Source: Actinomycetota bacterium (GTDB lineage Bacteria > Actinomycetota > Geothermincolia > Fen-727 > Anoxymicrobiaceae). Taken from it: 64,000 nt of DNA. Under the pieces are notes generated by a model that saw only the letters and a list, made by a program, of their open reading frames with translations, was not told the DNA's origin and made no database searches. The stretch's first letter is position 1, and the number at the start of each line of letters is the position of its first letter. The stretch covers positions 574-64,573 of the forward strand of contig JAZDFZ010000021.1 in NCBI GenBank assembly GCA_043807425.1, given 5' to 3'. Below are positions 3,042-59,309 of this stretch, in pieces. The position numbers and the translations under genes were made by a program.

Positions 3042-3080
3042 CCCCCTCACCCCGACCCTCTCCCCCCAGGGGAGAGGGGG
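3042..3080. repeat. REP-like family A palindrome upstream of the DUF559 gene
   Basis: CCCCCTCACCCCGACCCTCTCCCC-CCA-GGGGAGAGGG, inverted relative to the 2650 copy. Confidence 0.85.
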
Positions 3081-3232
3081 ATTGTCGTATGCACTCACGA
3101 TCACTTGCTGCTGCTCAAAATAAAGCGCCGCGCCTTTGACCCGGAGGTCCGGCGCAGCGCCCTCTCCCTGATTCAGAGCCCCGCTCGAAGCGGAGCAAGC
3201 TAATCAGATATTAGCAGACCAGGCAAACTCTG

Positions 3233-9540: not shown

Positions 9541-9602
9541 ACCGAGACCACGATAAGTGACGCAACCCGAGTGGAGATCTAATAGACCTGGCTGGATGAG
9601 AG
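9541..9602. repeat. Dispersed family D repeat (CGCAACC...TCTAWTAGACCTGGCT), copy 1
   Basis: 28/35 identity by hand alignment with the copy abutting the tRNA-Ser 3' end (57759-57793). Confidence 0.65.
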
Positions 9603-44631: not shown

Positions 44632-44997
44632 CAGGTGAGGCGGAAGGCGGGTAGGCGGTTGCTTGAGGTCTGACGCAGGTGCACTCCTCCCGCCCCACCT
44701 GAGGGCAAACTAACACAGACTGGCATCCACACTTCCTACGGCTCGAATCCTTTCGCGCTTACGTGGATACCTACCTCGTATTAGTCTTCGGGAACCCCGG
44801 GCGGTATCAACATACGTCGTTGGAACCATTACCGCGGGCAATAGGGTGACCGCTCCCCTCACCAATTGGCCGACCGGACCTGGATCGAGATGGCGGGCAT
44901 CGGGTCCGGACAGGACATCGGTCCATGACCGTGAACGGTGAGAGGTCGCGGAGGGGGTGGATCTGAGCATAAAAAAACGGCGATTTCGCATCGCCTT
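44632..44997 (-). ncRNA. Candidate stand-alone structured RNA
   Basis: Downstream of a sigma70-like promoter; several stems with G-U pairs on the minus strand; no recognisable ORF product. Confidence 0.35.
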
Positions 44998-45002
44998 GGA
45001 CC

Positions 45003-45030
45003 ATTCTATCACAGGTGGCCCGTGCGTCAA
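45003..45030 (-). promoter_or_regulatory. Sigma70-type promoter
   Basis: TTGACG-N16-TAGAAT with an extended TG. Confidence 0.55.
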
Positions 45031-45285
45031 ACAGACCAAGCAAACCTCTCTGAGCCCCATCAACGCTACATGTTGTATGAATTGGGATGAATAGCCCGGT
45101 TCAGGCACAACATGTCGAGTCTCATTTTTCTAGTGTGAATACGCCCGGTCACGGGACCACACGCCTGCAGCCGCGTACCGTCTCCCATAAGAGGAAATCA
45201 CGAGCCCCGCCTACAACTATATATTTGAGTCCGGTACGCTGGACGGCTTGGCACAGCCGTCAACCCTACATCCACCGGTGGCGAC

Positions 45286-51706: not shown

Positions 51707-51742
51707 CGCAACCCGATATCAAGGCTTAATAGACTTGGCTCA
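51707..51742. repeat. Dispersed family D repeat, copy 2
   Basis: CGCAACCCGATATCAAGGCTTAATAGACTTGGCT, about 27/34 identity with the 57759 copy. Confidence 0.65.
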
Positions 51743-57758: not shown

Positions 57759-57790
57759 CGCAACCAATGTCAAGGTCTATTAGACCTGGC
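57759..57790. repeat. Dispersed family D repeat, copy 3, abutting the tRNA-Ser CCA
   Basis: Contains the perfect dyad AGGTCTA-T-TAGACCT (57773-57787). Confidence 0.7.
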
Positions 57791-57881
57791 TGGCGGAGAG
57801 AGAGGGATTCGAACCCTCGAGACCCTTTTGGGGCCCACACGCTCTCCAGGCGTGCGCCTTCGTCCACTCGGCCATCTCTCC
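57791..57881 (-). tRNA. tRNA-Ser (GGA)
   Basis: GGAGAGA/TCTCTCC acceptor stem, GGCCGAGTGG D-arm, CACGC-CTGGAGA-GCGTG anticodon arm, long variable arm, GGTTCGAATCC, encoded CCA. Confidence 0.97.
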
Positions 57882-58271
57882 GGGATCGAGTCTAGCAGGA
57901 GGAAGGTTCGCCCGCCATTCCAGGCCAGGGTCGCTCAGGCGTCCTTCCAGTTCCACCACTTGAGGAGCTCGGGATCGTGACGCTCTCTGGAAGCGTAGTA
58001 GACTGCGCACCGGAACACGTACAGCTGGCAGCGATCTATCGTAATCCCTCTCAGAGAACAGAGAGTGTCATATAACTGCTGGGGGTCGCGTTCGCGCAGC
58101 TCGTCAGGGGTTCTTATATCCATTGCCCACAGGTCTTCCGCGGTCTTTTCCCCGACGCCGGGAATCCCCATCAGCGCTGAGAGATGTCGTTTGTCTGCCG
58201 CTCTACTCATCCTGTTGTGCCTCCAGGCGTGCGCCTTCGTCCACTCGGCCATCTCTCCGGGATTGAGTCTA
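57844..58271 (-). mobile_element. Mini-cassette bounded by 51-bp direct repeats of the tRNA-Ser 5' half plus its -10 box
   Basis: 57844-57894 and 58221-58271 are identical at 50/51 positions; offset 377 bp. Confidence 0.75.
57935..58210 (-). CDS. Helix-hairpin-helix protein, Cdd1 / mitomycin-resistance-like family
   Basis: [44 protein letters not shown]. Confidence 0.85.
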
Positions 58272-58440
58272 CACCACTGGCGTCTGGAAGTTGCATCCTT
58301 CAGAGGAGGTGTCGCCGCTGTGCGGCGCTCGCATGCACTCTTCCCGCCGGGTCAGCTCTTCGAGCCCGCCTCGTTCTCCTCGATGCGCGCTCTTACCAGC
58401 TTCCTGACGAGGTTTCCCCTTCCCGGCGTCGCAACGGGTA

Positions 58441-58472
58441 TTGACACGCACTGACTTGTGAATTATTGTTCA
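58441..58472 (+). promoter_or_regulatory. Sigma70 promoter overlapped by an SmtB/ArsR-type operator
   Basis: TTGACA-N17-TATTGT; palindrome TGAA-TTATTG-TTCA (58459-58472). Confidence 0.7.
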
Positions 58473-58505
58473 TCTGTTCACTTGTTCATACGCAGCGGAG
58501 ACAGG

Positions 58506-58820
58506 ATGGGTGACTGCACGGCTATGAGGTCCTCGAAGATCCCGGAGAGCGTCATCAAGCGGACGGCGAGCCTTTTCAGGGTCCTGGGCGATCCGACCAG
58601 GGTGAAGATAATCACCGCGCTCTGTGGGGAGGACCTCTGTGTCGGCGACATCGCTGAGCTCGTGGGGGTCAGTGACTCGGCGGTCTCCCACCAGCTGCGC
58701 GTGCTGCGGAACATGGGAATCGTCGAGTACAGCAAAGAGGGAAAGAACGTGATCTACTCTCTACGGGACGAGCACATCAGGCGGATACTCGAGCAGAGCC
58801 TGGATCACGCCACGGAGTAA
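58506..58820 (+). CDS. ArsR/SmtB family metalloregulator
   Basis: FRVLGDPTRVKI, LCVGDIA, SAVSHQLRVLR, DEHI...LDH alpha5 site. Confidence 0.93.
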   Translation: MGDCTAMRSSKIPESVIKRTASLFRVLGDPTRVKIITALCGEDLCVGDIAELVGVSDSAVSHQLRVLRNMGIVEYSKEGKNVIYSLRDEHIRRILEQSLDHATE

Positions 58821-58829
58821 GGAGCGGTC

Positions 58830-59309
58830 ATGCTCCGCCATTCAGCGAAAACAGGATTGAATTTCGGCTTGACCTCGGGGGTCATCACCACGCTCGGGCT
58901 GATGGTCGGGTTGGAATCCGGCACCCAGTCGAAGCTGGTGGTGCTGGGCGGGATCCTGACCATCGCCGTCGCCGACGCGTTCTCCGATGCGCTCGGCATC
59001 CACATGAGCGAGGAATCCGAGAACAAGCATTCGGCCCGAGAGGTCTGGGAATCCACGGTATTCACCTTCCTTGCCAAGTTCATATTCGCGGCGATATTCG
59101 TGGTGCCGGTGCTGACCCTCGACCTGTCCCTCGCGGTGATTGTCAGCATAATCCTGGGCCTGGCACTTATCACCCTGGCGAGCTGGTACATGGCCAGGCA
59201 GCAGGGCTCCAGTCCGTGGAAGATAATCGCCGAGCACCTGAGCATCACCATCGTCGTGATCGTGGCCACCCACTACGTGGGCCACTTCGTGGCCGTCGTC
59301 TGCGGTTGA
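58830..59309 (+). CDS. VIT1/CCC1-like metal transporter
   Basis: FGLTSGVITTLGL, IAVADAFSDALGIHMSEE. Confidence 0.85.
   Translation: MLRHSAKTGLNFGLTSGVITTLGLMVGLESGTQSKLVVLGGILTIAVADAFSDALGIHMSEESENKHSAREVWESTVFTFLAKFIFAAIFVVPVLTLDLSLAVIVSIILGLALITLASWYMARQQGSSPWKIIAEHLSITIVVIVATHYVGHFVAVVCG

Follow-up and report, generated by a model that had tools for sequence, protein, structure and literature searches.

Genomic islands in tRNA genes are textbook knowledge, and almost all of them duplicate the 3' part of the tRNA gene and span kilobases. Integrase-less, att-flanked derivatives of integrative elements that can be mobilized in cis (CIMEs) are known from the ICESt literature on Streptococcus thermophilus. 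Integron cassettes carry an attC hairpin site and are served by an IntI-attI-Pc platform with one platform promoter. In Islander, an intact tDNA together with a displaced fragment marks an island, including cases in which a 5' fragment lies upstream (PMC4383910), and in the tycheposon islands of Prochlorococcus successive integrations leave partial tRNAs and degraded elements (bioRxiv 10.1101/2020.12.28.424599). Only rarely does integration involve the 5' end of a tRNA gene; this has already been described for the pelagiphages HTVC021P/022P/201P/121P/105P (bioRxiv 10.1101/410191).

Here we describe a tRNA-Ser(GGA) locus in a 64-kb window (the whole stretch of 64,000 nucleotides that was analyzed), which lies on contig C21 of its source MAG, G000. 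The MAG consists of 90 contigs, is 78% complete with a GC content of 64.8%, contains a tmRNA and a 92-nt tRNA-Val, and belongs to a lineage described as anaerobic, uncultured actinobacterial. A repeat search of the window identified a 51-nt direct repeat at 57844-57894 and 58221-58271, with the copies 377 bp apart and 50/51 positions identical; the sole mismatch (C at 57887 versus T at 58264) falls at tRNA position -6. Because ARAGORN and Rfam agree in placing tRNA-Ser(GGA) at 57791-57881 on the minus strand (RF00005, score 57.3 bits, cut-off 29, with model positions 1-71 fully covered), the repeat comprises 13 nt upstream of this gene, starting from TAGACT, and tRNA nt 1-38 (-13 to +38), and it ends in the anticodon loop at CTGGAG. 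No other tRNA-Ser(GGA) gene was found in the assembly, which is 78% complete. Its 5' half occurs in only two copies genome-wide, and the upstream partial copy is not called as a tRNA. The 326 bp between the repeat copies contain nothing but cdd1 as the sole ORF. On the minus strand the order is the divergent ArsR gene, 187 nt, the partial copy, a leader, cdd1, a 40-nt spacer, and the intact tRNA. The features are as follows, where L143, L147, and L155 are loci of relatives and g10 is a genus.

58458..59309, plus strand: resident flank, with an ArsR-family regulator (58458-58820) and a VIT1-family transporter (58830-59309) divergent from the tRNA (Pfam; collinear with the genome G001; the same pair adjoins tRNA-Ser in L147)
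58272..58331, minus strand: putative resident promoter region that originally lay upstream of tRNA-Ser, facing the divergent ArsR (similarity to the L147 ArsR-side promoter)
58221..58271, minus strand: putative displaced resident copy, with the -10 box TAGACT, a 7-nt spacer, and tRNA-Ser(GGA) nt 1-38; attL-like (repeat D1; upstream flank like the L147 ArsR-side tRNA promoter)
58211..58224, minus strand: junction and cdd1 leader, with a GGAGG Shine-Dalgarno (58224-58220) and cacaacagg (L147 and L155 leaders)
57935..58210, minus strand: cdd1, 91 aa, the only cargo (PF11731, alignment A1, GC3)
57895..57934, minus strand: putative cassette-borne spacer and upstream promoter part (-53 to -14), with the TGc that belongs to the extended -10 (homology to the spacers between cdd1 and the tRNA in L143, L147, L155, and genus g10)
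57844..57894, minus strand: putative cassette-borne -10 box with tRNA nt 1-38, which supplies the 5' part of the functional tRNA gene; attR-like (repeat D1)
57791..57881, minus strand: intact tRNA-Ser(GGA), CCA encoded (ARAGORN; Rfam RF00005)

The partial copy on the minus strand consists of TAGACTCAATCCC followed by tRNA-Ser nt 1-38 (58271-58221), GCACAACAGG forms the stretch between this copy and the cdd1 ATG, and cctgcTAGACTCGATCCC directly precedes the intact tRNA-Ser(GGA) (57881-57791). The GGAGG at 58224-58220 lies 9 nt 5' of the ATG at 58210. The promoter on the cassette side carries cctcctgcTAGACTCG. The intact tRNA is preceded by the extended -10 form TGcTAGACT, and the partial copy by gtgTAGACT. 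An earlier sequence-only reading of this DNA had noted the repeat with its single mismatch, the lone cdd1-like helix-hairpin-helix gene, the GGAGG before the ATG, and the separate extended -10 box of the intact tRNA, and all of its descriptive points proved accurate. An identity of 50/51 over 51 nt, with no more than two copies genome-wide, far exceeds what 64 kb would yield by chance, which rules out a chance repeat, and a tandem duplication of the 377-bp unit is ruled out since only 1.14 unit lengths with one cdd1 are present.

The locus resembles the Islander and tycheposon islands in its direct-orientation fragment (an intact tDNA with a 5' fragment upstream), in older inserts that are pushed outward with partial tRNAs left behind, and in the many segments that lack an integrase, as do the 326 bp here. 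Unlike in those islands, it is the 5' part and the promoter that are duplicated, the insert lies upstream of the tRNA, and the unit is 377 bp with a single 91-aa gene and no integrase found in the assembly. As in the pelagiphages, the core overlaps the 5' part of the tRNA and the incoming element would supply the replacement 5' part; unlike these whole phage genomes with their own integrase, the unit has one gene, and its repeat extends from the -10 box to the anticodon loop. CIMEs share with it the attL- and attR-like flanks, the lack of own recombination genes, and a related autonomous element at the same site (in the genome G009, see below), and differ in that no conjugative element is seen here, the cassette is far smaller, and its mobilization is putative. 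Integron cassettes are likewise single-gene units with one recombination site, permuted arrays, and a recombinase outside the cassette, whereas here there is no attC hairpin, IntI, attI, or Pc, the site is the tRNA promoter with the 5' half, and each unit brings its own promoter. What sets the locus apart is that several features are combined: the 5' half is used together with the promoter, the unit has one gene in 377 bp, it recurs with the same junction, and the modules are permuted. The reading we prefer, at a probability of roughly 0.6, is that the 377-bp unit is a discrete, horizontally acquired cassette that entered tRNA-Ser(GGA) by recombination in the anticodon loop, catalyzed in trans.

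The cargo belongs to the Cdd1 family (Pfam PF11731, 97.3 bits versus a cut-off of 25.5, profile positions 2-82 of 86), and 32 columns of alignment A1 are invariant among the window Cdd1 and seven relatives. Cdd1 is a small helix-hairpin-helix protein that probably binds DNA; a PDB profile search gave weak helix-hairpin-helix matches to polymerase domains only, and profile searches gave no PHROG or NCBIfam match. Exact-protein look-ups for the window Cdd1 returned no match, and the G000 assembly has a single cdd1. Its codon composition is foreign in the window, with a GC3 of 0.66 versus 0.79-0.89 in the neighboring genes, and in L143 and L147 the composition of cdd1 matches that of its neighbors. 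The 105-aa gene call for cdd1 starts inside the tRNA fragment and is 14 codons too long; it is best explained as an over-extension, judging from homologs that start with MS(R/N)AAD and from the extension being out of frame in L143. A survey of the Cdd1 family for tRNA 5'-half repeats, which the sequence-only reading had proposed, came back negative: across 80 loci from many phyla, three adjoin a tRNA and none has half-repeats of tRNA-Ser or otherwise, which rules out that Cdd1 genes are generally tRNA-flanked cassettes. Decayed tRNA halves upstream of the other seven class-level cdd1 genes (six of the same family) were not significant, and a candidate inverted tRNA-half remnant upstream of the G015 cdd1 was rejected as not significant (p ~0.14).

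All comparisons were made with MAGs and metagenome contigs. A Cdd1 protein (P0003) 78% identical to that of the window is present on contigs from three JGI samples. L143 contains an array of a pseudo-tRNA-Ser, a tRNA-type promoter with a nitroreductase gene, a partial tRNA (t2), cdd1, a promoter with a partial tRNA to +39 (t3), DUF3795-DUF1801, and an intact tRNA-Ser at the contig end. Window positions 57882-58290 (reverse complement) can be aligned over their full length to L143 1646-2062 (identity in 314 of 425 columns), and the alignment spans the half tRNA, the tRNA(+38)/leader junction, the gene, and the spacer. The L143 unit from t2 to t3 is 379 bp versus 377 bp in the window, and the flanks of the unit differ (nitroreductase in L143 versus ArsR in the window). 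This is not the picture of a one-off tandem duplication, which had been named beforehand as an outcome that would speak against a cassette. Since the unit recurs in another organism, it appears to be a discrete, horizontally moved cassette, and the earlier description of a discrete, integrase-less one-gene unit inserted through the tRNA-Ser 5' half gains support from this homologous unit and from the integrase-bearing element at the same site. Random deletion of larger islands is unlikely to give the same two boundaries twice, which leaves two possibilities, namely that the unit itself is what moves or that the arrangement is ancient. For G000, an ancient arrangement would be at odds with the 98% identity of the window repeat compared with L143 t2, a decayed copy that by eye retains about three quarters identity to the 5' half of the intact tRNA, with the lack of cdd1 in G001, and with the GC3 contrast.

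The same comparison bears on whether a larger, integrase-bearing island once lay between the repeats and cdd1 is the last gene left. Degraded islands with scattered partial tRNAs are common (bioRxiv 10.1101/2020.12.28.424599; PMC4383910), contig C33 of G000 itself has two integrase-less segments (2.3 and 3.0 kb) bounded by 3' fragments of tRNA-Glu(CTC), and a partial copy in G001 is truncated at +16. We nevertheless regard such a remnant as improbable, given that the deletion would have to stop precisely at the edge of the repeat and 10 nt short of the cdd1 start, that L143 has the same boundaries and length, and that the 326 bp contain no residual island sequence. Still less credence is due to an assembly artefact, in which a misthreaded 51-bp repeat would have interrupted a true ArsR-tRNA-Ser neighborhood and cdd1 would reside elsewhere, in another strain, or on a small circle. 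The fragmentation and incompleteness of the MAG would allow it, as would a 99%-identical VIT gene in SRR22388083 when no cdd1 more than 80% identical to the window's is present in the protein collection outside G000. Against it, the junction CTGGAG/GCACAAC must exist on some molecule, the homologous junction was assembled independently in the three JGI samples, and comparable structures were assembled in G009, G017, and L147-L149. Close homologs of the window VIT protein are labeled 'Actinobacteria bacterium', and this label and the tmRNA rule out the archaeal origin to which the 92-nt tRNA-Val had pointed.

The same tRNA site holds other cargo in relatives. The tRNA with its 13 upstream nt was searched in 41 relatives and then by local BLAST, and upstream partial copies of tRNA-Ser were found in three more genomes of the order. 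In G017, which belongs to another family, the copy covers -18 to +39 (57/57 identical) at a spacing of 1384 bp, and the cargo of ~1.3 kb consists of small ORFs without Pfam hits. In G009 it covers -13 to +41 with one mismatch at a spacing of 4577 bp, and the cargo of ~4.5 kb encodes a 291-aa tyrosine recombinase. The copy in G001, a genome of the same genus as the window, covers -24 to +16 and is truncated, with a spacing of 3013 bp and an 836-aa repeat protein. In a sample of 401 genomes of the phylum, G000, G009, and G017 were the only ones to contain a half tRNA that is not continued by its remainder. The left junction of the G009 element was found again, identical, on an independent JGI metagenome contig, the only case of the partial-copy pattern in the metagenome contigs; a metagenome scan for the left junction of the window gave no match, and the pattern was not found in viral contigs. 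An empty site for the G009 element in the same-genus genome G014 was rejected because the flanks are not conserved.

The right ends of the displaced copies lie at +38 (the window and L143 t2, which represent one junction), +39 (G017), +39 (L143 t3), +41 (G009), and +45 (L147). Five of the seven cleanly mapped right ends fall at +38 to +41, in line with the anticodon-loop crossover put forward by the sequence-only reading; Williams is said to have described this location in 2002 as typical of one class of tRNA-targeting integrases. As judged from the mapped boundaries, the clustering, which includes cargos without a cdd1 leader, favors a site-specific process in the anticodon stem-loop. The ends at +16 in G001 and at about +75 in L143 t1 are exceptions, and G007 has an internally deleted full tRNA copy in front of DUF1801; the history of the hotspot is therefore mixed.

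The direction of the insertion can be read from L147, whose cdd1 is 73% identical to that of the window. Its order is DUF1801, cdd1, a decayed promoter with tRNA nt 1-45, and then VIT, a 70-aa ORF, and ArsR on the opposite strand; after ArsR, it continues with 197 nt, an intact tRNA-Ser, and GNAT, with no cassette between ArsR and the tRNA. Along the tRNA strand, L147 thus has the order cdd1, partial tRNA, VIT/ArsR, intact tRNA, and the window has VIT/ArsR, partial tRNA, cdd1, intact tRNA. ArsR beside tRNA-Ser in L147 may be taken as the equivalent of an empty site, in a relative that is not of the same species; the spacing from ArsR to the tRNA sequence is 187 nt in the window versus 197 nt in L147. 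The 60 nt upstream of the partial copy are identical to the L147 ArsR-side promoter at 37/60 positions (shuffle p ~0.0035), with p 0.89 for the L147 cdd1-side promoter, and the 60 nt upstream of the intact copy match the L147 cdd1-side promoter (p <0.0005); the cross comparisons of the promoter flanks are not significant in the shuffle test. These matches suggest that the partial copy is the original tRNA 5' part beside ArsR and that the working promoter and 5' half came with cdd1. Such an assignment of resident and incoming parts is what the canonical integration model would predict for a 5'-side site. The conservation of the extended -10 (TGcTAGACT) on the cassette side would follow from the same model, because incoming DNA must supply the promoter. 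G001 shares collinear flanks with the window on either side (as far as window position 58459), lacks cdd1, and contains other DNA there.

The linkage of cdd1 to this tRNA extends beyond the repeat-flanked loci. In G010 and G015, an ABC-2 permease gene is followed by cdd1 and then immediately by tRNA-Ser(GGA), with cdd1 and the tRNA on one strand and no partial copy, and the metagenomic locus L155 has the order DUF3795, ORF, DUF1801, cdd1, intact tRNA-Ser with no repeat. A glycosyltransferase gene lies between cdd1 and the tRNA in G011. The distribution of cdd1 is patchy, with presence in one of two species in each of the genera g1, g2, and g9, and the GTDB order holds only 21 species genomes. 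The series of cdd1, spacer, tRNA promoter, and 5' half appears from these loci to be an old linkage in the lineage, and it is the content of the window cassette. A donor locus for plain homologous exchange therefore exists.

The cdd1 leader of the window is cctGGAGGCACAACAGGatg, and the leaders of L147 and L155, where no tRNA lies upstream, are tacgGGAGGAGCAACAGGAatg and tagGGAGATGCAACAGAAttg, respectively; both have the same GGAG(G)..ACAGGA-ATG leader as the window. Because these tRNA-less homologs share it, the Shine-Dalgarno is native to cdd1, and the earlier proposal that the fusion with the tRNA created it has to be abandoned. For the same reason, the junction sits in GGAG common to both parents. 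The 4-nt GGAG at the right junction is shared by the anticodon loop (CTGGAG) and the cdd1 leader, and the junction could therefore be a microhomology join. As aligned, it is compatible with such a join as well as with tyrosine-recombinase strand exchange within a short stretch of identity. Under the recombinase view, the cdd1 leader would have acted as a secondary site when the unit first arose.

These features also accommodate a recombinase-free import from a relative with cdd1-tRNA-Ser(GGA) synteny, with homology within the tRNA on one side and an illegitimate GGAG join on the other, by homology-facilitated illegitimate recombination or by Campbell-type insertion of a circularized fragment. 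The unit would then be the scar of one or a few events and not a mobilizable cassette. The GGAG microhomology with the native leader of L147 and L155, the repeat-less synteny in G010, G015, and L155, the lack of an integrase in the assembly, and the heterogeneous boundaries of other upstream copies all speak for such an import. It accounts poorly for the same junction and unit length in the different flanks of L143, for independent cargos (G017, G009, and L143 t3) that end at +39 to +41 with no GGAG-bearing leader, and for an integrase-bearing element at the same site, and its homologous anchor would be <=53 nt. On this balance we consider import unlikely, while leaving it a sizeable minority of the probability.

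For the reading that we prefer, a cassette moved in trans, the G009 element offers a model enzyme. The cassette and this element use the same site with a similar extent (-13 to +38 versus -13 to +41), and the element encodes a tyrosine integrase (PF00589, 130.8 bits) that adjoins the intact tRNA and is divergent from it. The enzyme is Xer-like by NCBIfam, below every equivalog cut-off, and reaches 72 bits on the integron-integrase model versus a cut-off of 265. The arrays themselves do not qualify as integrons, for their repeats are tRNA 5' parts and no integron-integrase-type match lies beside them. No cognate integrase was found in the G000 assembly, which is 78% complete, so that 22% of the genome is missing. 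Its two full tyrosine recombinases, on contigs C79 and C83, share 34% and 30% identity with the G009 enzyme and presumably represent the housekeeping Xer pair, and a C-terminal integrase fragment lies beside tRNA-Leu(CAA) on contig C86. A search of 51 genomes of the class recovered relatives of the G009 integrase at E<=1e-40 in three genomes only, G009, G001, and G017, and it is these three that, besides G000, have 5' duplications. The relatives in G001 and G017 adjoin tRNA-Glu(CTC) and not tRNA-Ser, which rules out that they mark tRNA-Ser elements; no tRNA-Glu repeat was found within 13 kb (G001) or about 5 kb (G017) of them.

Before the insertion, the tRNA would have been located about 190 nt from the divergent ArsR-VIT pair. 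A cassette comprising the cdd1 leader and ORF, the 40-nt spacer, and its own tRNA-Ser(GGA) promoter with nt 1-38 may then have been inserted by recombination in the anticodon loop of the resident tRNA-Ser(GGA), with catalysis in trans, probably by a tyrosine integrase resembling the Xer-like enzyme that the 4.5-kb element of G009 encodes. The resident promoter and 5' half would stay on the ArsR flank as the upstream partial copy, and the working tRNA would be rebuilt from the cassette promoter and 5' half joined to the resident 3' half. This geometry places cdd1 10 nt downstream of the former promoter with its truncated 5' half and immediately ahead of the new tRNA promoter. The cassette would thereby capture a tRNA promoter, as the sequence-only reading had supposed, with the displaced copy leaving the resident promoter directly ahead of cdd1.

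Both copies have TAGACT at -13 to -8, and only the cassette copy has the TG. A sigma-70 consensus scan called a promoter for neither copy, since a -35 match is lacking, and no terminator-like site was found between the displaced promoter, cdd1, and the tRNA. With no terminator and the -10 kept, yet no -35 match, transcription of cdd1 from the displaced tRNA promoter is plausible but unproven. The product would be a half-tRNA-cdd1 RNA, which may extend into the tRNA; no special fold is predicted for the half-tRNA leader (z = 0.94).

Across the relatives, the small modules cdd1, DUF1801, DUF3795, and ArsR-VIT occur in permuted orders around the tRNA. A broader and tentative interpretation is that the order runs an integron-like cassette economy at the tRNA-Ser(GGA) 5' half, with integrase-less units, promoter hand-over, reordering, and an Xer-like integrase encoded elsewhere. 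Units of cdd1, DUF1801, DUF3795, nitroreductase, and ArsR-VIT would each carry at their end a copy of the promoter and 5' half of the tRNA, each insertion would rebuild the tRNA and hand the displaced resident promoter to the incoming gene, and excision with reinsertion would give new orders, of which L143 compared with L155 and the window compared with L147 may be examples. We would bet against this wider scheme, although it is possible enough to merit consideration.

For annotation, the locus carries a warning, since a partial tRNA led the gene caller to add 14 codons to cdd1, and partial tRNA fragments can be mistaken for tRNA genes. For the biology of such sites, the inclusion of the tRNA promoter in the site means that whatever inserts must bring a functional promoter for an essential, single-copy tRNA, and the old promoter left pointing into the cargo would be a built-in expression mechanism for promoterless genes. 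At 377 bp, the unit is close to the smallest conceivable tRNA-anchored cassette. If mobilization in trans is true, an integron-like capture of cassettes could be built from a tRNA promoter and 5' half, and the unit would represent a compact natural "landing pad plus promoter" design.

The single gene carried by the 377-bp cassette between the two tRNA-Ser(GGA) copies is recorded with a longer product than its homologues indicate.

57935-58252, minus strand: cdd1 gene as recorded (protein P0001, 105 aa)

The ATG of this recorded protein falls within the partial tRNA, the displaced 5' half of tRNA-Ser, and comparison with homologues places the true start at 58210, giving a product of 91 aa.

On the other side of the intact tRNA-Ser, inspection of the sequences identified three copies of a repeat of about 35 nt (GCCAGGTCTAATAGACCTTGA..GGTTGCG), all in the same orientation within the window.

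57759-57793, minus strand: first repeat copy
51707-51741, minus strand: repeat copy
9561-9595, minus strand: repeat copy

The CCA of tRNA-Ser is where the first copy begins, whereas a decayed tRNA-like 3' end close to tRNA-Thr precedes one of the others. The repeats may be the borders of an island of about 6 kb on the 3' side of the cassette-bearing tRNA-Ser. The 3' end of this tRNA also recurs in relatives.

L042 3134-3159 and 3357-3369: recurring tRNA-Ser 3' end
L007 1112-1137: recurring tRNA-Ser 3' end
L044 4039-4063: recurring tRNA-Ser 3' end

In several of them the final 26 nt reappear past the gene, at a distance of roughly 200-226 bp downstream; the recurrence in G017 is a tandem unit of about 223 bp, and contigs C48 of G001 (same genus) and C34 of G035 hold arrays of tRNA-Ser 3' fragments. 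Small non-coding units seem to be stacked at the tRNA-Ser 3' end as well.

Three other tRNA loci of the source genome, G000, also have features of note.

Window 44970-45061, minus strand: tRNA-Val(GAC), 92 nt (ARAGORN)
C33 62085-62162, outside the window: tRNA-Glu(CTC)
C33 64452-64513 and 67477-67529, outside the window: two further 3' copies
C86 (4.5-kb contig) 2807-2894 and 3071-3202: locus with a tyrosine integrase C-terminal fragment and tRNA-Leu(CAA)

The tRNA-Val, perhaps a pseudo- or composite tRNA, is unusually long for its kind; a normal-sized tRNA-Val(GAC) of 75 nt is found elsewhere in the genome. After tRNA-Glu(CTC), its 3' end of about 55 nt occurs twice more, bounding two tandem segments of 2.3 and 3.0 kb without an integrase, and a tyrosine integrase occupies the corresponding position in G001 and G017. 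The integrase fragment on C86 points toward a second tRNA-Leu(CAA) gene; an integrative element, either degraded or unassembled, probably ends here.

Further arrangements of tRNA-Ser with a small gene or with cdd1 were identified in other genomes.

L053 2734-2790 (G007): internally deleted tRNA-Ser copy
L010 1339-1500 (G010): three tandem 54-bp repeats
L069 3864-4243 (Dehalococcoidia MAG), same strand: tRNA-Ser(TGA) and cdd1 homologue

The G007 locus runs from a tRNA-type promoter through the deleted copy, in which the first 9 nt of tRNA-Ser are joined to its own T-loop and 3' end, to DUF1801, and the intact tRNA follows at a distance of 467 bp. DUF1801 here is another one-gene unit flanked by two tRNA-Ser copies, but the upstream one was formerly full length. 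In G010, the tandem repeats separate the cdd1 stop codon from the tRNA-Ser promoter. The tRNA-Ser(TGA) of L069 is complete and lies upstream of the cdd1 homologue, whose tblastn match starts 49 nt past the tRNA and whose likely ATG lies about 34 nt past it; here, in a different phylum, tRNA-Ser and cdd1 may have become linked independently.
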